Shown: in pieces, positions 10,963 through 21,072 of the stretch
How positions within the stretch are numbered: the stretch's first letter is position 1
Layout: each line of letters begins with the position of its first letter
DNA from: an uncultured Ectothiorhodospiraceae bacterium
Lineage (GTDB): Bacteria; Pseudomonadota; Gammaproteobacteria; S012-40
Direction of reading: 5' to 3'
Length of the DNA stretch: 53,009 bases
Assembly: GCA_945787125.1 (NCBI GenBank)
Contig: CALZHW010000006.1
Location: 1 to 53,009, forward strand
Position numbers and translations under genes: made by a program
The notes under the pieces: model-generated
The model's input: only the letters and a program-made list of their open reading frames with translations
What the model was told of the DNA's origin: nothing
Database searches by the model: none

Positions 10963-11840
10963 AAGAAGGTCAAAGTAGTAACGGTTCTGAGTCACGATCG
11001 TGGTTTGAAAAAATCAGCCAAGCATTAACCGGCGAGCCTCGGGATCGGAAAGCACTTGTCGAACTATTGCGCGATTCAGAACAACGAAACTTGCTGGATC
11101 CAGACTCACTCGCAATGATTGAAGGCGTCATGCAAGTCTCCGAGATGCATGTTAGAGACATCATGATTCCACGCTCACAAATGACGGTAATCGAACGCGA
11201 AGTGTCTCCCGATGACTTTCTACCTACCGTTTTAGAGTCCAAACATTCCAGGTTTCCAGTCATCGGTGAAAACCGCGACGAAGTTGTTGGGATTCTTCTC
11301 GCCAAGGAATTGCTCCCCTATTTTGCTTCAACTGACAGAGAGCGATTTGATATGCGCGATGTCATGCGCACCCCGGTATTTATTCCTGAAAGCAAAAGAC
11401 TCAATGTATTATTAAAAGATTTTCGTTCTACCCGAAATCACATGGCGATTGTGGTCGATGAATATGGCGGCATCGCTGGGCTGGTCACTATCGAAGACGT
11501 GTTGGAACAAATTGTCGGCGAAATCGAAGATGAATATGATTTAGAAGAAGATTCCTACATCATGAAATATTCAAATGATCACTACTCAGTAAAAGCACTG
11601 ACTCCCATTGAGGATTTCAATCAATACTTTGAAACTGACATGAGTGAAGAAGATTTTGACACAATTGGCGGATTGGTAATGAATGCCTTTGGCCACTTAC
11701 CCTCGAGAGGCGAAACTGTCGCAATCGGTGATTACCATTTTACGGTCATGCGCGCTGATAAGCGACGTCTCCATCTATTACAGCTCTCCATCAAAAACCA
11801 ATTAACTGAGAATTCCACGACAACAAACAGTGAACATTAA
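10959..11840 (+). CDS. corC: CBS-domain Mg/Co homeostasis protein CorC (YbeX)
   Basis: HSRFPV, HMAIVVDEYGG, TIEDVLEQIVGEIEDE, DTIGG. Confidence 0.93.
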   Translation: MKEGQSSNGSESRSWFEKISQALTGEPRDRKALVELLRDSEQRNLLDPDSLAMIEGVMQVSEMHVRDIMIPRSQMTVIEREVSPDDFLPTVLESKHSRFPVIGENRDEVVGILLAKELLPYFASTDRERFDMRDVMRTPVFIPESKRLNVLLKDFRSTRNHMAIVVDEYGGIAGLVTIEDVLEQIVGEIEDEYDLEEDSYIMKYSNDHYSVKALTPIEDFNQYFETDMSEEDFDTIGGLVMNAFGHLPSRGETVAIGDYHFTVMRADKRRLHLLQLSIKNQLTENSTTTNSEH

Positions 11841-13350
11841 AATCGATAACCTCAAAAAAACACCCGGTGATATATTGGCGTTGGTGGCCGGCAGCATTGT
11901 GCCACTGGCATTCGCCCCATTTAGTATTTGGTTGATCGCACCGTTTTCTCTGATTCTTCTTATGCTGTGTTGGCACCAGGTGACTCCCGGCCGCGCTTTT
12001 TTCCGAGGCTGGTTATTTGGCCTAGGCATGTTTGGAGTTGGCACCTCATGGGTTCATATCAGCATGAATCAATATGGCGGGATTGGTATTCCACTGTCGG
12101 TTTTTCTAACGGCATTATTTGTCATGTTTCTCGCTTTGTTCCCAGCACTCACCGGCTATATGGCGCGTAAATTAACATTACGTGGCGGACACAGAATTGC
12201 GCGGGAATATTTATTAATTATTCCTGCCATGTGGATGCTGGTTGAATGGATTAGAGGCACGATTTTTACCGGCTTTCCCTGGTTATCTCTGGGTTACAGC
12301 CAAATAGACACGCCACTCAGTGGTTTTGCACCCTTACTGGGCGTGTATTTTGTTTCGTACGCCACTGCGATGTCAGCTGGCCTTATCGTTTACTTGTTGT
12401 TACAAGGAAAACCCGCGCTAAAAATTGCGTTCCCTTGCTTCATTGCTTTATGGGGAATCGGTGCAGCCCTCAAAGCCGCAGCCTGGAGCGACCCAATCGG
12501 TGAACCCATCACAATCAGTATGGTTCAAGGCAATATCGCGCAAGACAAAAAATGGCTGCCAGAACAACGTATACCGACCATCGATATGTATACCCGAATG
12601 AGTCGAGACAACTGGAGCAGTGATTTAATTATCTGGCCAGAAACAGCGATACCGGCGTTTTACCATCAATCGAGAGCTTTTTTGAAAAATATGGCGCAAG
12701 AAGCGCGAATGAATAGCTCGGAGTTACTGGTGGGCATACCCTTTTACAACAAGCGTGATGATCAATATTTTAACGCCATGATAAGCCTGGGTCTGGAAGA
12801 ACATTTTTATGAAAAAAAGCACCTGGTTCCGTTTGGTGAATATTTACCATTTAAAGATTATCTGGGTGGGTTTATCGACTTCTTTGACATTCCGATGTCA
12901 AACTTTTCACCCGGTCGACAAGACAAGCCATTGGTACATGTCGCAGGATATGATGCTGGCATCTCTATTTGTTATGAGGACATATTCGGTGAAGAGGTGT
13001 CGCAAGCATTGCCAGAAGCCAAGTTTTTAATCAACACCAGTAATGACGCCTGGTTTGGTGACTCACTGGCCCCGCATCAACATCTGGAAATCGCCCGAAT
13101 GCGCTCACTGGAAACAGGCCGCTACCTGGTACGCTCAACCAACAACGGCATTTCCGCTTTTATTGATGACAAAGGTAAAATCATCTCTCGTTCACCACAA
13201 TTTGCAACCCATGCGTTAACAGATTCCATTCAACCCATGAAAGGGATAACGCCTTACGCGATATTCACCAATATTCCGATAGTCTTGCTCGCGATTTTAT
13301 TACTGGGTATCGCTTATATTTTAGGCCGAAACGCCAAGCTGGCGAGCTAA
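11830..13350 (+). CDS. lnt: Apolipoprotein N-acyltransferase
   Basis: FTGFPW, WPETA, KKHLVPFGEY, ICYED, SNDAWFG (E-K-C triad). Confidence 0.96.
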   Translation: MNIKIDNLKKTPGDILALVAGSIVPLAFAPFSIWLIAPFSLILLMLCWHQVTPGRAFFRGWLFGLGMFGVGTSWVHISMNQYGGIGIPLSVFLTALFVMFLALFPALTGYMARKLTLRGGHRIAREYLLIIPAMWMLVEWIRGTIFTGFPWLSLGYSQIDTPLSGFAPLLGVYFVSYATAMSAGLIVYLLLQGKPALKIAFPCFIALWGIGAALKAAAWSDPIGEPITISMVQGNIAQDKKWLPEQRIPTIDMYTRMSRDNWSSDLIIWPETAIPAFYHQSRAFLKNMAQEARMNSSELLVGIPFYNKRDDQYFNAMISLGLEEHFYEKKHLVPFGEYLPFKDYLGGFIDFFDIPMSNFSPGRQDKPLVHVAGYDAGISICYEDIFGEEVSQALPEAKFLINTSNDAWFGDSLAPHQHLEIARMRSLETGRYLVRSTNNGISAFIDDKGKIISRSPQFATHALTDSIQPMKGITPYAIFTNIPIVLLAILLLGIAYILGRNAKLAS

Positions 13351-13368
13351 GGAATGTGTATGAAATAG
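13351..13368. mobile_element. Solo end of the GGAACGTG MITE family abutting the lnt stop codon
   Basis: TAA|GGAATGTGTATGAAATAG matches the ends of the 33184-33455 element (GGAACGTGTATGAAATAA). Confidence 0.6.
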
Positions 13369-13385
13369 TATTCTCAACGCTGTTA

Positions 13386-13441
13386 GGCGTCTGCTGTTGA
13401 CCATTATGTGAAGCTTCACATAATGCTCAACAGCAGACGTT
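13386..13441. repeat. Palindromic 12-6-12 site S1 with a 20-bp palindromic insert
   Basis: GGCGTCTGCTGT-tgacca-[TTATGTGAAGCTTCACATAA]-tgctca-ACAGCAGACGTT. Confidence 0.8.
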
Positions 13442-13593
13442 AAAAAAAGAGCGGCTTGATCCGAAACAATTAATTGAAACTACTCTATACGATTTTTTTT
13501 TGGACATCAGCTAATAGCCAATTCCAGCCGTTTAACATTTCATACTTCTGGTCATAGACCGTTGCTTATTTATCATTCCTGGAAAGTATTGAT

Positions 13594-13623
13594 AACAGCA
13601 GCAGTGTCGCGTAAGTTGCCGTT
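13594..13623. repeat. Palindromic 12-6-12 site S2
   Basis: AACAGCAGCAGT-gtcgcg-TAAGTTGCCGTT; arms fit the consensus AAYGDCHGC. Confidence 0.6.
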
Positions 13624-13769
13624 CTATTTCTTAGCCTCTACTCACACCGTCAGCTATTAATTGCCCTTCGATAATTGCAAACGAAGGTCTTAAGTACAGC
13701 TTTACGAACATAGAGTCCTTCCGTCAAATTTCTGCCAATTCTGTCAATTAACTCAGATGCGGTCATTTA

Positions 13770-13988
13770 AATTCAGTGGAAATCTATGTTATCTCATACA
13801 GTGACTATTTGGGACTAGGTTGACACATAGGGACATCAAGCATTGACTGAAAAGGGACTATCCTAAATCAAAGTAAAATTTACCATATAGAGTTTAAAGC
13901 TTTTGCAAGGGCAACAGATACTAAAAGGAATGAAATTTATTTAGAGTTAAAACAGGTTAAATTAGGCCACCCTAAACATAAGAAGTAA
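13770..13988 (+). pseudogene. Possible 3' remnant of an unknown gene with two in-frame TGA codons
   Basis: Frame reads NSVEIYVISYSDYLGLG*HIGTSSID*KGTILNQSKIYHIEFKAFARATDTKRNEIYLELKQVKLGHPKHKK*. It ends at the terminator hairpin; no homology recognised. Confidence 0.3.
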
Positions 13989-14010
13989 AAAGCCCTCGAA
14001 AGAGGGCTAT
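13987..14010. terminator. Intrinsic terminator (U-tract on the minus strand)
   Basis: AAAAAGCCCTC-GAAA-GAGGGCT, just downstream of the extended NTase reading frame. Confidence 0.8.
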
Positions 14011-14036
14011 AAAATAACTAAAAATTAAACTTCTAG

Positions 14037-14807
14037 TTATAGTCCTTTTCTTTTAGCATAAACATTTCTTTTAATTTTAATAGCTTCTAGTCGTTTAGGT
14101 AATTCTTTATCACGGAAAAGCTGATGAGGGATAAAATTAAAGTCAAAAACAAGCAGTACATCAATTTTAAATTCAAAATAACAATATACACCAGCAGGCG
14201 ACTCCGCTAGATGGAAGATTCTACCAGCAGCTTTTGTCAGCTGCTTAATGTCCTCTTCCTATAATAATCTATCAAAAAAAGCATTGACTATTTTAATGGC
14301 CACTTGTGCTTGAGTGATACCGTTAGTTGTTCTTTTAGATGTAAGTCTTTTTAAGTTCTCTAACCTACTTTGTAGACAAATCAAAGGGTGTAATAAGTAA
14401 ACTGAAAAGTCATCTGTTTCTACTTCAAGGGCTAAATTTTGAATGTCTTTGTCTTTAATTCCTAGCAAGTCAGCAAGAAAGTCTATTTGAAGTAGTTTAT
14501 TCCCACTACCCGTGTAACTAATAACCGCAATATTTGGTGTGTGGTCATCCATACTTGGTAAGGCTAAACTACCATTTAAAGCTACCGCTAATAACTCAGC
14601 ATCTTGTTTATTTCCAATGAAGTCGATATCTTGAGTTAAAGCGGGGGTTTTAATTTCAGGTAAGTCTATATTGTAAATGTAAACCCAAGCAGATATGGCC
14701 TGACCACCTACAAGGATAATTTTATGATCCGCTTCAGCATTGATTTTCTTAATTTGGAGAAGTGTTTGGTTTAAATCAAACGGCGTAACCCAACCATAGT
14801 CAATCAA
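14037..14807 (-). pseudogene. Nucleotidyltransferase-fold protein interrupted by one in-frame TAG (14259-14261)
   Basis: ILVGGQA...TQDIDF...IDFL NTase-like motifs. The frame continues 73 sense codons past the TAG (EEDIKQLTKAAGRIFHLAES...YAKRKGL) to TAA at 14037, followed by a terminator. Confidence 0.7.
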
Positions 14808-14818
14808 TGTATGACCGC

Positions 14819-14995
14819 CTAAAGACTAGGATTATTTTTGATTTTAGCGTTCTTAAAGGATTCAGGGTTAAATATACTTGCTTTTGCAAGAGATTGGTTT
14901 TGAGTTAATTTTTTGGCACGACAATCAGCAATAAACGATTTTTGACGTTCATTTTTATTAGGTAGCGATTGATAATCAATATAATTGATAGCCAT
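14819..14995 (-). CDS. Small basic hypothetical protein, putative partner (antitoxin?) of the NTase
   Basis: GAGAGG RBS before MAINYIDY; ends 11 bp before the NTase start; same AT-rich composition. Confidence 0.55.
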   Translation of the reverse strand: MAINYIDYQSLPNKNERQKSFIADCRAKKLTQNQSLAKASIFNPESFKNAKIKNNPSL

Positions 14996-15314
14996 AGCCT
15001 CTCTGAAATTTGCGGACAATAAAGTCATTACACGCCATATATACTACTTTTAACGGATTAGGTCAATAAGCCTTTATAAATATACTCTAACTGGTACTAC
15101 CCGGCTCCGAAATTACACCTAGATACCTAATCGAACTTCTGCTATCAGTTTCTAATTATTGGATTTCAAACAAAACGAAGGGCAGCTAACGCGATATTCT
15201 TCTAAGTCAGGTATATTTAACCAAAGTCTGCTCCAGGGTGTTAGTTGAAATTCAAATAAGATTTCGTTTAGCGTAATTTCGGTCAATTGATGCAGATCAA
15301 GTCGCTCGTTTTTT

Positions 15315-15344
15315 AGCGGCTGTTCAATAGACTTTGCTGCCATT
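15315..15344. repeat. Palindromic 12-6-12 site S5
   Basis: AGCGGCTGTTCA-atagac-TTTGCTGCCATT. Confidence 0.6.
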
Positions 15345-15405
15345 TATAAATATTGATCTAGTGTTTAAATTCTATCCAGCAGATGCACGTTGAAAATTAA
15401 AACCG

Positions 15406-15435
15406 AATATCTGCTTCTCGTGCGCTCCTGATGTT
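15406..15435. repeat. Degenerate 12-6-12 site S6
   Basis: AATATCTGCTTC-tcgtgc-GCTCCTGATGTT. Confidence 0.45.
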
Positions 15436-15450
15436 CATATATTAAATATG

Positions 15451-15480
15451 AATGACTTCTAAATAGACAAAGTAGCCATT
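15451..15480. repeat. Palindromic 12-6-12 site S7
   Basis: AATGACTTCTAA-atagac-AAAGTAGCCATT; same 6-bp core as S5. Confidence 0.65.
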
Positions 15481-15496
15481 TGCTATTAGGCGTGTG

Positions 15497-15554
15497 AATG
15501 TCCGCGCTTTTAGCCGTCATGTGAAGCTTCACATAATAGCCGAACTCAGACATC
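15497..15554. repeat. Palindromic site S8 with a 20-bp palindromic insert and duplicated core
   Basis: AATGTCCGCGCTTT-tagccg-[TCATGTGAAGCTTCACATAA]-tagccg-AACTCAGACATC. Confidence 0.8.
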
Positions 15555-15677
15555 AAGGTTTGATCTGACACGACAAGCCTTGTCGAGTCAGAATTTTAAC
15601 GCTGAATAAAAAAATCATTTTTCACATCATGAATGAGCGCATGCAAACCCCTAACCTTTCCCCGCAAATAAAGCTGG

Positions 15678-17510
15678 CTAAATGTCACCGAGAAAACCGC
15701 CAGATTGATGTTGCCAAAGTTTAGTGTAGAGACCATTTTCTGCTAATAACTCTCGGTGACTGCCTTGCCCAACAATACGTCCTTGGTCGATGACTACCAG
15801 GCGATCCATGGCGGCGATGGTTGATAGGCGATGTGCAATGGCGATAACAGTTTTGCCGTGCATAAGATGATTGAGCTGTTGCTGTATTGCCGCTTCCACT
15901 TCTGAATCCAAGGCGGAGGTTGCTTCATCCAACACAAGAATCGGTGCGTCCTTTACCAAAACACGAGCAATTGTAATTCGTTGCCGTTGCCCACCTGAAA
16001 GCTTAACGCCACGCTCTCCCACATAAGCATCATAACCGGTGCGTCCATCTAAATCGCGCAAGCCCAAAATAAACTCATGGGCGTGTGCGCGTTTCGCGGC
16101 TTCGACGGCAACGTCTATATCTGCATCGGGTCTACCGTACAAAATATTATCTTTAGCTGATCGATGCAGCAATGACGAATCCTGCGTTACGACACCGATA
16201 TTAGCGCGCAAGCTTTGCTGGGTGACTGTACTAATATCATAGCCATCAATAGTAATATCGCCATGTTCAATATCGTAAAAACGCATCAATAAATTGACTA
16301 ACGTTGATTTACCCGCGCCTGATGGTCCAACAATACCAATCCTCTCTCCCGCATGTAACTTTAAATTCAGATCTTTAATGACCGGATTCGCGTCATCATA
16401 AGCAAATGTAACATTATTAAAGCAAATTTCACCTTGATTAACGTTAAGTTTGGTCGCGTCGGTTCTGTCAATCACAGTATGAGGCTTTGCAATGGTTTCC
16501 ATTCCCTCATGCACAGCACCGAGGTTTTCAAAAATACCCGTCACTACAAACATTACCCATAGCGCCATATTATTAATGCGTATCACCAAACCTGTGGACA
16601 ACGCGATGGCACCCAAGCTAATGGCATCCTGTGACCACAACCAAATACCCAGCCCACAGGTTGCAACGATTAAACTCCCATTGATAAAAATGACACAGGT
16701 TTCCAGGGTGCTGATAAGACGCATTTGGTGAAAAAATCGCTGGGTTAATTCACGAATGGCTTCGCCTGCATAAGACTCTTCACGATCGGTATGTGAGAAC
16801 AGTTTCGCTGTTAGGATATTGGTATAACTATCAACAATTCGGCCTGTCAATGAAGACCGCGATTCGGATAACAATTTGGCTCGTTCTTTAACACGTGGCA
16901 CGAAGTACCAAAGCAAGAGCACGAAAGTCAGCATCCATAAAATTAACGGTATCATTAGCCGAAAATCGCTTTGTGCGAATAGTCCTAACGCCAATATGGC
17001 GTAGATCGATACGAACCATAATGTATCGATCACTTGAATCACTGATTCACGCAAAGACGGCGCAGTTTGCATCACTTTGTTGGCAATACGACCGGCAAAG
17101 TCATTATGAAAAAACGAGACACTTTGATGCAATACGTGTTTGTGGGTTTGCCAACGAATCAAAGCGGTGAAATTCGGCAAAATAGCGTGATTAACCAACA
17201 GCAATTGAATTCCATATACAATAGGCCGCAGAATAAGCGCCACAAATGCCATCCATAATAATAGCTCGCCGTGATCACTAAAAAAAGAGGCGGGTGTTTC
17301 TGCTGCTGTCATCAAATTGACTAGCTCACCTAAGAAGGCAAACAACAAAACTTCAATCAGTGCCACCACTAAGCCTACGATCAATACGGCAAAAATCACC
17401 GACTTGCACTGGCGAATAAAATACCAATAAAATCCAAGCAATTCGTTCGGTGGTGGAGTGGCTGGTGAAGGCTTAAAAGGTGAAATGCGTTGTTCAAACC
17501 AACGAAACAT
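15678..17510 (-). CDS. ABC exporter, fused permease/ATP-binding protein (MsbA/MdlB-like multidrug type)
   Basis: N-terminal TM domain; GPSGAGKS, LSGGQRQR, LDEATSALD, IAHRLST. Confidence 0.93.
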   Translation of the reverse strand: MFRWFEQRISPFKPSPATPPPNELLGFYWYFIRQCKSVIFAVLIVGLVVALIEVLLFAFLGELVNLMTAAETPASFFSDHGELLLWMAFVALILRPIVYGIQLLLVNHAILPNFTALIRWQTHKHVLHQSVSFFHNDFAGRIANKVMQTAPSLRESVIQVIDTLWFVSIYAILALGLFAQSDFRLMIPLILWMLTFVLLLWYFVPRVKERAKLLSESRSSLTGRIVDSYTNILTAKLFSHTDREESYAGEAIRELTQRFFHQMRLISTLETCVIFINGSLIVATCGLGIWLWSQDAISLGAIALSTGLVIRINNMALWVMFVVTGIFENLGAVHEGMETIAKPHTVIDRTDATKLNVNQGEICFNNVTFAYDDANPVIKDLNLKLHAGERIGIVGPSGAGKSTLVNLLMRFYDIEHGDITIDGYDISTVTQQSLRANIGVVTQDSSLLHRSAKDNILYGRPDADIDVAVEAAKRAHAHEFILGLRDLDGRTGYDAYVGERGVKLSGGQRQRITIARVLVKDAPILVLDEATSALDSEVEAAIQQQLNHLMHGKTVIAIAHRLSTIAAMDRLVVIDQGRIVGQGSHRELLAENGLYTKLWQHQSGGFLGDI

Positions 17511-17559
17511 AGTAATATCCTGAAAAAGTTAGGGAACGTGATAAAAAAATATTATCTCT

Positions 17560-17967
17560 TCAGGTTTGACTTGTATACGGGCAATTTCTGCATTTGTTAC
17601 TGCAGCATGAACCGCGCTTGAGGTGATACCAGCGACTAAAAACGTAATTACCATTTTCAATGGTATAGTCTATGTTGTTAATCAGCGCTTCATTTCCACG
17701 ATAGTGACTGGCAATGTTAAGAACTTCTTTGAGAGGCGTTAAATCAATAAATTGATCTATTTTTCCACTGACAGTCTTGGCAAGGCAATCAGCACATAGA
17801 CAATCTTGCTGTAACTCTAAAGGCATGAAGGCGGGATATTCCATGCACCAGCAGGATTCTCCTGCTTGGGTAACACCACAGGTAATATCTATGCCGCAAT
17901 TCGAACAGGGCTTTACTCTCTGTGACTCACCGTAATCAGATTTTTCATTCATACATATATTTGTCAT
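17560..17967 (-). CDS. Cysteine-rich CWC / DUF5522-like fusion protein
   Basis: N-terminal CSNCG..C......CWC...P....CLCADCL; C-terminal DYTIENG.YVFSRWYHLKRGSCC...CRNCPY. Start may be 17952. Confidence 0.75.
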   Translation of the reverse strand: MTNICMNEKSDYGESQRVKPCSNCGIDITCGVTQAGESCWCMEYPAFMPLELQQDCLCADCLAKTVSGKIDQFIDLTPLKEVLNIASHYRGNEALINNIDYTIENGNYVFSRWYHLKRGSCCSNKCRNCPYTSQT

Positions 17968-18154
17968 TCACAATTGGCGTTCAAATTATTTCCCGTAATC
18001 AGCGCTCGTAGTGGCAAAGCCTTATAGAGAGTGTTGGCAGCATGGATGCTGCCGTCAAGCCTACATGGACATATTTACAGCGTCTCTCGCTAAGGCTTTG
18101 CCGCTACGAGTGCTGGAAGGTGGCACTATTGCAACTTTGAACGCCGGTTGTGAG
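17967..18154. mobile_element. 188-bp MITE, CTCACAATCGGAGTTCAAA family
   Basis: TIRs TTCACAATTGGCGTTCAAA / TTTGAACGCCGGTTGTGAG; internal long stem and a GGCAGCATGGATGCTGCC hairpin. Same-length inverted copy at 51198-51385. Confidence 0.85.
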
Positions 18155-19012
18155 TTATATCGAACTCAACTGGTTTTTAAAAAACTCTGGTTCAGCCATT
18201 GCCCCGCGATGTATATCGGCGTTGTAATACTGCGTGCCGAAGCTTTTATTTTCCGCGGCATCTTCACGAAAACCGGTAAGCACAATATCTTTACTCGCAA
18301 TCGTTGCTGACCACCAGCCTGATGGATAGATGCATTGTGGGAAAAATAATGTTTTGCTGTCAATAAAACTAGCTGTTTTCATTTCCTGATGCATTTCGCG
18401 CAATATTTTCATATGTAACAGTGGTGATTCACTTTGCTGAATCAATAAACCATTTTCACCCAGCACGCGGTGACATTGCGTATAGAATGTTCTTGAAAAA
18501 AGTCCCTCAGCGGGTCCAACCGGATCAGTACTATCTATAATAATAATGTCATAACTGTTTGCCGCGGCGTCTTTCACCCATTGAATACCATCGATAAACA
18601 TTAACTCTGCACGTACATCATTATTGGATTCACACAGCTCTGGAAAATAGATTTCGGCTAAACGTGTCACCCGCTCATCGATATCAATTTGATGAACCAG
18701 TTCAATCTCGGGGTGCTTTAAAACTTCGCGCAACGTCCCGCAGTCCCCTCCACCTATAATTAAAACCCGCTTGGGATTTGGATGGCTAAAAATGACCGGA
18801 TGACTCATCATTTCATGATAAATAAAATTATCCCGGGTGGATACCATGGTGCATCCATCGATGAGCATCATGTTGCCAAATGTTTCGGTTTCGTAGATTT
18901 CTATTTTTTGAAAGGCAGATTGCTCTTCATGCAGTTTTTGTTTAATTTTTAAAGAAAACGCCGAACCTGTTGCCTCACTGGCTTCTGTCAGCCAAGTGTT
19001 ATCCAAAGCCAT
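18155..19012 (-). CDS. speE: Spermidine synthase (polyamine aminopropyltransferase)
   Basis: YHEMMSH, LIIGGGDCG, DIDERV, IIIDSTDPVGPAEGLF; GGAG RBS. Confidence 0.95.
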   Translation of the reverse strand: MALDNTWLTEASEATGSAFSLKIKQKLHEEQSAFQKIEIYETETFGNMMLIDGCTMVSTRDNFIYHEMMSHPVIFSHPNPKRVLIIGGGDCGTLREVLKHPEIELVHQIDIDERVTRLAEIYFPELCESNNDVRAELMFIDGIQWVKDAAANSYDIIIIDSTDPVGPAEGLFSRTFYTQCHRVLGENGLLIQQSESPLLHMKILREMHQEMKTASFIDSKTLFFPQCIYPSGWWSATIASKDIVLTGFREDAAENKSFGTQYYNADIHRGAMAEPEFFKNQLSSI

Positions 19013-19042
19013 ATTCACTCCCAAAACAATTCATTGATATTA

Positions 19043-19080
19043 GGAACGTGCATGAAATTTTCTAGCTATCTACACGTTCC
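19043..19080. mobile_element. 38-bp internally deleted GGAACGTG MITE
   Basis: TTA|GGAACGTGCATGAAA...TACACGTTCC|TTA in the divergent speE/speA region. Confidence 0.75.
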
Positions 19081-19185
19081 TTAAGGATTTCGGGCATATT
19101 TGCAACGAATGACAAAGTTACAGTAGCCGAAAGCACCGACGCACATTATACTTTGCGCACTATTAATTCTCAGCAGATTTTTTCT

Positions 19186-21072
19186 ATGACCGAATGGAGC
19201 ATTCAAAAAGCTCGTGCTTTATACAACATCAAGCACTGGGGTGATGATTATTTTGACATAAACCAACAAGGCCAGGTTACGGTCACCCCGCGCAAATCCG
19301 CCGGGCAGCCTATTGACTTGTTTGCTATCAGTCAAGAAATCAGGAAAATGGGCTTAAATTTGCCCGTATTGCTGAGAATTACCGATATATTAAGTGATCG
19401 GGTGGAAAAACTGTGCCATGCATTTGATACGGCGATCGAAACGCATGCTTATCAAGCCGATTATATTCCGGTTTATCCGATCAAAGTGAATCAACAGCGC
19501 ACCGTTGTTGAGCACATCCTGGCAGGCGAAACATCGCGCGTAGGTCTGGAGGCAGGCAGCAAACCGGAACTGATGGTGGTTTTATCACATGCAAATGCCG
19601 ATGGTGGAATTATCGTCTGCAATGGTTATAAGGATCGGGAATATATCCGCCTCGCTTTGATGGGACAATTGCTGGGGCATAAGGTATTTATCGTCGTTGA
19701 AAAACTCTCTGAATTGCAACTAATCTTACGGGAAGCCAAAGATCTTGGAGTCAGTCCTCTGATAGGAATAAGAATCCGACTCTCATCGATTGGCAAAGGT
19801 AAATGGCAAAACACCGGTGGCGAGAAGTCTAAATTTGGCTTGTCGGCGCAGCAAATCCTTGAGGTGATTAAGCATCTCAGTCAGCATAACGCACTGCATT
19901 GCCTCAAACTGCTACATTGCCATTTAGGTTCACAGCTGGCAAATATTCGGGATATACAAAACGGCTTTAAAGAATTTGCCCGCTATTTTTCCGAGCTAAG
20001 CAAGCTTGGCGTTGATGTTAGCCATGTCGATGTGGGCGGCGGGCTTGGGGTCGATTACGAAGGCTCACGCTCGCGCAACTATTGCTCGATGAACTACACC
20101 ATTCATGAATACGCCAATGACGTAGTAAAAGCGTTTGCACAAATTTGTGCCGAAGAAAAGATCAAACACCCAGATATTATTACTGAATCAGGCCGCGCCA
20201 TGACGGCCCACCATGCGGTCCTTATCACTAATATTATTGATGTCGAAGTACCGCAGGGTCAATCAGAGATTATTGCTGCAAGTAACGATAGCCCAATGGT
20301 TATTCAAAATTTATGGGACACATTGCAGAATATTTCTGAGCGTGCTGTACTTGAGGTCTACCATGATGCAGTACACTTGCTGGCGGAAGCACAAAGTATG
20401 TATACCCATGGCATTTTATCATTACAAGAACGCGCCCAGGCAGAGCAGCTTTATTTTGCCATTTGCCATCAATTGGTTGCACTACTATCCAATGCATCCA
20501 AATCCCAGCGTGAAATTATTGATGAATTGAACGACAAATTGGCTTATAAGTATTTCGCCAATCTTTCAATTTTCCAATCATTACCCGATGTCTGGGCTAT
20601 CGATCAAGTTTTCCCGGTCATGCCATTGCATCGACTAAATCAAGCGCCCGTTTGCCGTGTCACTATCCAGGATTTAACCTGTGATTCCGATGGCGCGATT
20701 GACCATTACGTGAATGGTGATAGCCTGGAGAGCACCATCCCCATGCACCCATTAACAGCAGGTGAGGATTATCTGATCGGCATTTTCCTGGTTGGCGCCT
20801 ATCAGGAAATACTCGGCGACATGCATAATTTACTTGGCGATACCCACTCGATAAACCTCGAAATAGATCATGACGGCAAGCATCATCTATACGAACCAGA
20901 ATTAGGGGATACGATAAAAGAAATTTTATCGTATGTGCATTTCAATGCGGAAGACTTGTTACGCAACTACCAACATAAAATTGATAATTGCGATCTGAGC
21001 CCAGAAAAAAGTGCACTCTTGTTTAGTGAGCTACAAGCCGGCCTGGAAGGTTACAGTTATTTAGAAGATTGA
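19186..21072 (+). CDS. speA: Biosynthetic arginine decarboxylase
   Basis: VYPIKVNQ, GLEAGSKPEL, GGEKSKFG, DVGGGLG, ESGRA, TCDSDG, GAYQEILGDMHNL. Confidence 0.96.
   Translation: MTEWSIQKARALYNIKHWGDDYFDINQQGQVTVTPRKSAGQPIDLFAISQEIRKMGLNLPVLLRITDILSDRVEKLCHAFDTAIETHAYQADYIPVYPIKVNQQRTVVEHILAGETSRVGLEAGSKPELMVVLSHANADGGIIVCNGYKDREYIRLALMGQLLGHKVFIVVEKLSELQLILREAKDLGVSPLIGIRIRLSSIGKGKWQNTGGEKSKFGLSAQQILEVIKHLSQHNALHCLKLLHCHLGSQLANIRDIQNGFKEFARYFSELSKLGVDVSHVDVGGGLGVDYEGSRSRNYCSMNYTIHEYANDVVKAFAQICAEEKIKHPDIITESGRAMTAHHAVLITNIIDVEVPQGQSEIIAASNDSPMVIQNLWDTLQNISERAVLEVYHDAVHLLAEAQSMYTHGILSLQERAQAEQLYFAICHQLVALLSNASKSQREIIDELNDKLAYKYFANLSIFQSLPDVWAIDQVFPVMPLHRLNQAPVCRVTIQDLTCDSDGAIDHYVNGDSLESTIPMHPLTAGEDYLIGIFLVGAYQEILGDMHNLLGDTHSINLEIDHDGKHHLYEPELGDTIKEILSYVHFNAEDLLRNYQHKIDNCDLSPEKSALLFSELQAGLEGYSYLED

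Follow-up and report, generated by a model that had tools for sequence, protein, structure and literature searches.

A pair of RIT-type palindromic repeat units around a decayed AT-rich island downstream of lnt in an uncultured Ectothiorhodospiraceae bacterium

The window analyzed here is the whole of a 53,009-nucleotide (nt) stretch from an uncultured Ectothiorhodospiraceae bacterium (positions 1 to 53,009 of contig CALZHW010000006.1, GenBank assembly GCA_945787125.1); the assembly holds 4,147,259 bases in 321 contigs and is 94.6% complete. Between two convergent genes of the window, lnt and a gene for an ABC transporter, lies an AT-rich island flanked by two related repeat units, S1 and S8, whose centers carry the palindrome found at the ends of elements known as RIT (recombinase in trio). 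An earlier note, made from the sequence alone, had described this island as a decaying array of mobile cassettes punctuated by about eight related sites (S1 to S8), each with two 12-base-pair (bp) arms around a 6-bp core. The AT-rich segment that it pointed out is borne out by base composition, with a GC fraction of 0.28-0.41 from about position 13400 to about 15500 as against 0.44-0.50 outside. The features of the island and its flanks are collected in Table 1.

Table 1. Features of the island downstream of lnt and of its flanks, in positions of the window (aa, amino acids; ORF, open reading frame).
Feature	Position	Strand	Basis or remark
lnt, apolipoprotein N-acyltransferase, left flank	11830..13350	+	LNT_N and CN_hydrolase matches
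Repeat unit copy 1 (S1)	13379..13468	+	palindrome, folding, alignment to S8, core the same as RIT ends
AT-rich interior	13469..15481		accessory DNA in decay, no recombinase gene
Solo left terminal repeat, IS3 family	13779..13833	-	81-91% identity to copies in 4 relatives
Terminator-like hairpin, then T run	13991..14008	-	after the nucleotidyltransferase-like gene
Nucleotidyltransferase-like gene	14037..14825	-	about 262 aa read through; in-frame TAG at 14259-14261
69-aa ORF, candidate antitoxin-like partner	14819..15028	-	directly upstream of the nucleotidyltransferase-like gene
83-nt stretch shared with one relative (G005)	15341..15423		77% identity; overlaps the proposed site S6
Repeat unit copy 2 (S8), diverged direct copy	15482..15575	+	repeat search, gapped alignment, 1 mismatch in core
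ABC transporter, fused permease and ATPase, right flank	15678..17510	-	ABC_membrane and ABC_tran matches
Proposed sites S2-S7	13594-13623, 13738-13767, 15134-15163, 15315-15344, 15406-15435, 15451-15480		no better than chance

S1 lies 29 nt past the lnt stop codon and is built around a 52-nt palindrome (13388-13439) in which 25 of the 26 pairs form, the arms being 96% complementary. At its middle, at 13404-13423, is a 20-nt RIT-type core made of two half-sites placed back to back, TTATGTGAAG and then CTTCACATAA; the whole can be laid out as 10-6-10-10-6-10 with the exact core in the center, and the outer 10-nt arms are not TTATG half-sites. As single-stranded DNA, S1 is predicted to fold with -24.1 kcal/mol on the + strand and -27.3 kcal/mol on the - strand (z scores of -8.6 and -9.5), and none of 200 shuffled sequences folds as well. 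S8 is a copy in direct order: its positions 15506-15556 match 13393-13443 at 73% over 51 nt and its positions 15482-15496 match 13379-13393 at 87% over 15 nt, with a 10-nt insertion in the left arm between these two stretches. The S8 core, at 15517-15536, has a single change with respect to that of S1 (TCATG...), and the hairpin has been lost, the z scores being -0.85 and -1.31, with 33 and 23 of 200 shuffles folding equally well. When the two units are aligned with gaps, they are alike over about 90 nt, reaching about 40 nt past the palindrome on each side, with a mean column identity of 74% over 147 columns and an identical 19-nt center. The central 16 nt match at two places in the window, where 0.29 would be expected, and these two places, 2.1 kb apart, are also the only ones in the entire assembly. 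Both S1 and S8, the outermost of the sites proposed, are therefore real, S8 as a degraded copy of S1.

No match like S1 was found in 40 relatives from the same family and class, and Rfam, searched on 12500-16500 at E-values up to 10, returned only noise, including plant and animal microRNA and small nucleolar RNA models at S1. A 38-nt BLAST match between S1 and six Klebsiella plasmid records (E 0.04) was set aside as chance, because the matching stretch is not palindromic and lies in the promoter region of gcvA. S1 also holds, at 13397-13430, hexamers resembling those of sigma-70 promoters, TTGACC-16-CATAAT (10 of 12 positions) and, on the other strand, TTGAGC-16-CATAAT (9 of 12), which is a match to consensus only.

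In a scan that covered viral contigs and 185,579 species with one genome each, the 19-mer common to S1 and S8 turned up in 69 genome loci and 9 viral loci, with 79 copies in these 78 loci. To go by the record titles, most are from Bacillota, with others from Bacteroidota, Actinomycetota, several classes of Pseudomonadota and further groups. The context that recurs is the palindrome, two TTATGnAAAG-like half-sites on one side of it, and then three tandem genes. In a 3.6-kb contig (L087), for instance, palindromes at positions 105 and 3281 flank three genes that overlap and encode 311, 325 and 338 aa; each of them has a Phage_integrase match with SAM-like N-domains. Three tandem tyrosine-recombinase genes are what is described as a RIT, a recombinase in trio (PMC3414803), and the 20-nt core of S1 is letter for letter the palindrome at RIT ends, the identity reaching 22 nt with many of the copies. 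All three Rit queries were matched within 4.5 kb in the case of 33 of the 79 copies and at least one in the case of 39; many of the remaining copies lie less than about 100 nt from a contig end.

The ends of these elements are built in a regular way. In 61 of the 79 copies, a half-site of the form TTATGNNNRS is found no more than 50 nt away on just one side of the palindrome; in none is there one on both sides, and in 18 there is one on neither side. Read inward, the order is flank, 6 nt, TTATGTGAAG and CTTCACATAA, 6 nt, half-site, 7 nt, half-site, genes; the first half-site stands exactly 6 nt past the core in 52 of the 61 copies, the second follows 17 nt after the first in 45 of 45, and, again in 52 of 61, the 6-nt spacers on either side of the core are mirror images at no fewer than 4 of their 6 positions. 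Through the 6-nt spacing, each half of the palindrome forms with the half-site next to it a CATAA-N6-TTATG arrangement, which is the geometry of Xer-type sites. (This layout of subterminal half-sites at 6 and 17 nt is a description derived in the present analysis, not a published definition.) Where the core varies, in other genomes of the class, the changes are symmetric, as expected of a palindrome that is bound by protein. For the RIT elements of Sphingobium, imperfect palindromic repeats of 47 and 51 bp are reported at both ends, where they are also called flanking direct repeats (Nielsen et al., 2017, PMC5737581), and a table note in PMC10214605 gives 34 bp for the terminal inverted repeats of the archetype.

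Beside the complete elements, several reduced forms were seen among these loci. Several copies (for example L046, L057 and L066) are bare palindromes of 32-34 nt inside unrelated sequence, and one locus (L042, 4715-4995) has a gene-less RIT derivative of about 280 nt, consisting of the palindrome, two half-sites, about 200 nt and two inverted half-sites. In L065, read by eye, there is a simple insertion in a parA gene, between the K-G-G and V-G-K-T-T codons, with a palindrome at one end only and with the 6-nt spacer repeated at the junctions. Two Lachnospiraceae loci, L065 (3063-3120 and 6440-6560) and L082 (4980-5100), both have the RIT interrupting a parA-like gene exactly at the Walker-A stretch, and in these, again by eye, the palindrome is always toward the downstream part of the gene whatever the orientation of the element.

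Some further observations concern the surroundings of the database copies. Similar flank sequence abuts several of the proteobacterial and viral ones (L048, L073, L092, L099 and L095), and its translations resemble what we take to be a conserved motif of IS66-family transposases; the flanks of L087 presumably encode an IS66-like fragment as well. RIT elements thus seem to home into the genes of other transposons. The outer flanks of L087 (1-104 and 3301-3581) are inverted copies of one another, about 85% alike by eye, with the same transposase fragment running into the element, which may reflect an inversion between two insertions or an effect of assembly. A repeat of about 180 nt that has several copies in the genome studied here (on contigs C95, C81 and C233) is 74-83% identical to positions 6760-6948 of L072, a contig from a metagenome-assembled gammaproteobacterial genome; it is unrelated to the palindrome.

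What follows lnt here differs from what follows it in related organisms. Of the 25 relatives' loci with enough room, 21 have a small convergent gene after lnt, at 75-285 nt from the match, and the other four have none; the loci compared (L004-L015, L115-L128 and L169) come from family-level genomes and metagenome contigs, with Lnt identities of up to 76%. In the window no such gene is found within 6.6 kb of lnt (13350-20000). A metagenome scan with Lnt brought up 80 loci, the best at 76% identity, none of which has the ABC gene or island DNA, so that no empty site was obtained; neither the ABC gene nor island DNA adjoins lnt in any relative examined, which puts the block formed by S1, the island and S8 at a break in gene order. 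The closest relative of lnt, with 76% protein identity, has different neighbors. The 7-nt sequence AACGCTG, found both at 13378-13384 and at about 15606-15612, was considered as a target duplication and is unsupported, since a 7-mer common to two stretches of about 60 nt is expected roughly one time in five (a rough estimate). As for the genes that come after the small convergent gene in L115, the closest relative, those not missing from the assembly lie on contig C22. On C83 there is a paralogue of the small gene (49% identity over 45 aa), which offered no hint of a rearrangement.

The interior between the two units has no match in the 40 relatives apart from pieces of 55 and 83 nt, and no conserved core genes were found in it; searches of the island ORFs against NCBIfam, PADLOC and Pfam gave no match. 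The nucleotidyltransferase-like gene belongs to a family that was found by exhaustive search, a word-index protein search having returned only the window's own 182-aa piece. At E<=0.001 this piece has 1024 relatives, most of them 250-280 aa long. An alignment of 30 family members, compared with the G-G/S ... D-x-D motif of polymerase-beta-type nucleotidyltransferases such as AbiEii/MenT-like toxins, shows G41, Q42, D66 and D68 to be invariant. Six of these 30 have weak Pfam matches (NTP_transf_8 in four, DUF2204 in one, AbiEii in one), and the family profile matches PDB entry 8an4, an AbiEii/AbiGii toxin family protein, at E 0.028; for the window's own protein, Pfam, NCBIfam and PADLOC gave no match. 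The module is absent from all 15 other genomes of the order. At six of the seven viral loci that have a relative of the large gene, an ORF of 58-71 aa lies directly upstream and ends in W-P-x-L or something similar; the 69-aa ORF of the window, which has no family match, ends in N-P-S-L. Judged by sequence, the gene pair is a conserved two-gene module, broken here by the TAG, so that the description as a toxin-like pair in the earlier note is a fair one, the toxin assignment resting on weak matches.

The solo terminal repeat in the interior has full or partial copies in four relatives (G004, G005, G007 and G010), several of them at contig ends. A full copy in L026, where an OrfA (134 aa) and a DDE OrfB (383 aa) adjoin the same end, marks it as IS3 family, an assignment that comes with a weak HTH_Tnp_1 match and holds for the remnant of about 55 nt only; no IS3 transposase gene is left in the window. 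The proposed site S3 adjoins this remnant. The counterpart of the 83-nt stretch in G005 (C80:3788-3870) is intergenic, between a 76-aa ORF and a 441-aa gene, and the stretch is possibly a small mobile or regulatory element.

S1 and S8 are, on the evidence of their core, which is identical to the RIT end palindrome, sites of the tyrosine-recombinase kind, and on balance they probably represent the two end units of a decayed, gene-less RIT-type element that was inserted just downstream of lnt. The insertion is supported by the loss of the neighbor gene that most relatives keep at this place and by the absence of the cargo gene from the 15 other genomes of the order. The view that tyrosine-recombinase sites bracket accessory DNA, including a toxin-antitoxin-like pair, had already been put forward in the earlier note, and for S1 and S8 it holds, the core being that of RIT ends and the arrangement of arm, 6-bp spacer and arm being present in real RIT ends (the 52 of 61 given above). 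Its placing of the exchange at the center of the site probably does not hold: to judge from the geometry of RIT ends, RIT elements are likely to exchange strands elsewhere than in a 12-6-12 unit centered there.

A number of points weigh against such an origin and temper our confidence in it. The inner half-sites present in 61 of the 79 database copies are missing from S1 and S8; in 13300-15700, searches with TTATGNNAAG or TTATGNRRAS match only inside the S1 and S8 cores. The 26-nt palindrome arms of S1 are longer than those of all 79 copies, among which the maximum is 19 nt, and the mirroring of the outer 16 nt on each side is unexplained by simple decay; with these longer arms and no subterminal half-sites, the two units carry the hallmark of RIT elements and are not ordinary RIT ends. 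Among the 78 loci there is no case of two palindromes around cargo other than rit genes. No rit genes or remnants were detected in the island by tblastn with the six Rit proteins of L087 and L092 (best E 0.28), and no rit trio was found in the assembly, whose eight PF00589 (Phage_integrase) matches are at eight separate loci; at 94.6% completeness and in 321 contigs, a trio may be unassembled. Nor was an empty site or a close relative found with which the borders could be fixed. The earlier note had the sites served by a recombinase encoded elsewhere, and no matching trio turned up in the assembly. One truncated tyrosine recombinase (contig C8:1-780), which comes to a stop at 212 aa without reaching the catalytic end of its domain, was rejected as a Rit protein, being single and only 27% identical to Rit proteins over 96 aa.

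Of the other explanations, the one that survives best, though we think it unlikely, is that S1 is the solo footprint of a single RIT visit (spacer-core-spacer), that S8 is a local duplicate of it, and that the island was formed by unrelated events such as IS3 activity or ordinary acquisition. There are precedents for such footprints in the 18 copies without a half-site on either side, several of which are the bare palindromes mentioned above; in L065, with its palindrome at one end only, recombination between the two inner sites would leave exactly such a footprint; and the solo IS3 end does lie within the island. The two units are, however, the only copies in 4.15 Mb, and two independent ones 2.1 kb apart would be improbable; furthermore, their homology is in direct order and continues for some 40 nt outside the palindrome at either side, as at the ends of one integrated segment, and the low-GC stretch starts and stops near them. 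A fainter possibility is that the segment from S1 to S8 is a non-autonomous cassette, with the palindromes alone sufficing for RIT recombinases supplied in trans to excise or insert arbitrary cargo (the toxin-antitoxin-like pair in this instance), in which case the 52-nt symmetry of S1 would reflect a hairpin or cruciform intermediate.

It is more doubtful again that S1 is a regulatory or structural hairpin of the host -- an operator, a divergent promoter or something like a terminator -- which resembles the RIT core by coincidence or convergence. Its nearness to the lnt stop codon, the promoter-like hexamers on both strands and the lack of a recombinase would all fit, but an exact identity of 20 nt (22 nt with many copies) to a motif that stands beside RIT half-sites in 61 of 79 copies is far beyond chance, which, with ten free positions in the palindrome, would be about one in a million. 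There is also no T run after the S1 hairpin on either strand, no terminator was called at S1, and nothing alike follows lnt in the loci of 26 relatives.

That about eight related 12-6-12 sites make up a new kind of decaying cassette array, with the recombinase encoded elsewhere, is highly improbable in view of the behavior of S2 to S7. The arms of these six are complementary at only 7, 4, 3, 6, 7 and 8 of 12 positions, respectively. When a 12-6-12 inverted repeat was scored at every position of the island, with 300 dinucleotide-preserving shuffles as the null, 62 positions reached at least 7 of 12 as against 51.5 +/- 7.2 in the shuffles (28 of the 300 reaching 62), and 15 reached at least 8 of 12 as against 11.3 +/- 3.3 (52 of the 300 reaching 15), so that the island counts are within the range of the shuffles and the array is largely refuted. 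No family uniting S2-S7 emerged from a repeat search in the island, and none of them carries a RIT half-site. What does speak for an array is an 8-mer that, by eye, is common to the left arm of S2 and the right arm of S1, and the outer-arm consensus AAYGDCHGC, which has 16 matches in the window, four of them in the 2.3-kb island, where 0.20 are expected and none of 500 mononucleotide shuffles reaches four. This enrichment is circular, since the consensus was drawn from the same sites, and it fits only 4 of their 16 arms; of the four island matches, one is in S1, one is in the S8 insertion, and two are start-codon contexts, at the ATG of a 38-aa ORF at 13766 and that of a 63-aa ORF at 15343. 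Six of the eight proposed sites are therefore to be dropped as chance, and with them both the array and the short modules that the sites were thought to set apart. The remark in the earlier note that no full site occurs elsewhere in the window applies to sites of the S1/S8 type only, because 12-6-12 positions occur throughout the window, those with at least 7 of 12 at 17.0 per kb and those with at least 8 of 12 at 3.8 per kb.

The earlier note was right to separate the sites from integron attC and from canonical XerCD dif. The window has no CATAA-N6-TTATG, the center of the XerCD type of site with its two inverted arms of about 11 bp and 6-bp spacer, and the ten in the genome are all elsewhere; one of them, at C3:34101-34128, looks like a canonical dif with long arms, and a weak Phage_integrase match lies nearby at C3:28131-28652. 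A crude test for attC, in the form of a search for pairs of R'' (RYYYAAC) and R' (GTTRRRY) boxes 45-150 nt apart, gave a single pair in the island, at 14788-14873, which has 8 of 20 complementary positions at its ends and coincides with no S site. Hairpin-forming palindromes do flank a promoterless toxin-antitoxin-like cassette here, and the half-site TTATGTGAAG does resemble the TTATG-type arm of the dif on C3, but with these results, and with nothing above noise in Rfam, we give next to no credence to S1-S8 being attC sites (in a cluster without integrase) or dif-like pdif sites.

The S1-island-S8 structure is, then, probably a decayed RIT-type shell, not an eight-site cassette array, and its ends are neither attC nor dif. 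As to how such a shell could have arisen, the three tyrosine recombinases of an intact RIT would act on ends built from TTATGnnAAG-like half-sites, and the 20-nt pair of half-sites placed back to back (the palindrome), 6 bp from the first inner half-site, would provide the dif-like CATAA-N6-TTATG sites, with exchange most likely in the 6-bp spacer. The palindrome would in that case be the middle of the site made by the joined ends and would be left on one side after integration. Recombination between the inner sites would leave a bare spacer-core-spacer footprint, and two palindromes in direct order could recombine with each other, deleting or inserting the DNA between them and leaving one palindrome. 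RIT recombinases may thus once have bound S1 and S8, and the 2-kb segment may have entered or been rearranged through them. The core is intact in S1 and nearly so in S8, but with the inner half-sites and the rit genes absent and S8 decayed, the structure is most likely inactive today.

The region downstream of lnt is accordingly to be seen as a scar of past mobile-element traffic, and not as a working recombination system. If it was ever active, it would mean that a palindrome alone can define a mobile segment and that RIT elements are capable of moving or deleting accessory DNA and DNA of the host; if the palindromes did suffice for recombinases acting in trans, RIT elements would operate cassettes in a way that can be compared with integron attC or pdif modules. 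RIT elements are widespread, and laboratory work has, according to PMC10214605 and PMC3414803, never reproduced their movement. For Bifidobacterium longum, such a part in deletions was suggested by Lee et al., 2008 (PMC2430713).

Among known systems, the closest are the RIT elements themselves (Van Houdt et al., 2009, 2012, PMC3414803; PMC5737581), which like S1 and S8 have at each end, in direct orientation, a palindromic repeat of about 50 bp, and whose 20-nt core, the same as that of S1, occurs in RIT ends from several phyla; the chemistry of tyrosine recombinases is presumed here as well. Unlike the usual 3-kb trio, the window has 2.0 kb of foreign cargo and junk in the interior, no rit genes in cis and none in the assembly, no subterminal half-sites, and arms of 26 nt as against 19 nt or less. 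In Bifidobacterium longum, the mobile integrase cassettes (MIC; Lee et al., 2008, PMC2430713) have three contiguous integrases together with a conserved 20-bp palindrome, and they border genome deletions. Their palindrome differs in sequence from that of S1, a 96-bp inverted repeat and IS3-type elements are part of MIC, and the window has no integrases; the likeness between the solo IS3 end of the island and those IS3-type elements may be a coincidence. The gene-less derivatives and solo palindromes described above also have the RIT-type palindrome without recombinase genes, but L042, at about 280 nt, keeps inverted half-sites and the solo copies (L046, L057 and L066) are single, whereas in the window 2 kb of cargo stand between two copies, and half-sites are lacking.

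More distant are the XerCD dif/pdif modules, which share the logic of arm, 6-bp spacer and arm, the TTATG-type arms and the bracketing of accessory modules, toxin-antitoxin pairs included, by sites. In comparison with these and with the integrative elements that exploit Xer, S1 and S8 are without a complete CATAA-N6-TTATG, and the dif-like site of the genome is on another contig. SE, GInt and Tn554-type transposons (PMC10214605) use several recombinases and have short imperfect inverted ends and a 6-bp spacer in which a footprint is borne; their gene sets (intA-tfp-intB-srap, ginABCD and tnpABC, respectively) differ and were not found in the window, and a core shared with S1 is not evident for their ends, the text of PMC10214605 giving no end sequences. 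The unusual feature of the present case is that two RIT-type palindromes, without half-sites and with a 52-nt symmetry, enclose non-RIT cargo, an arrangement of which the 78 loci hold no second case; the kind of element, already described as RIT and as the MIC of Bifidobacterium longum, is not a new system.

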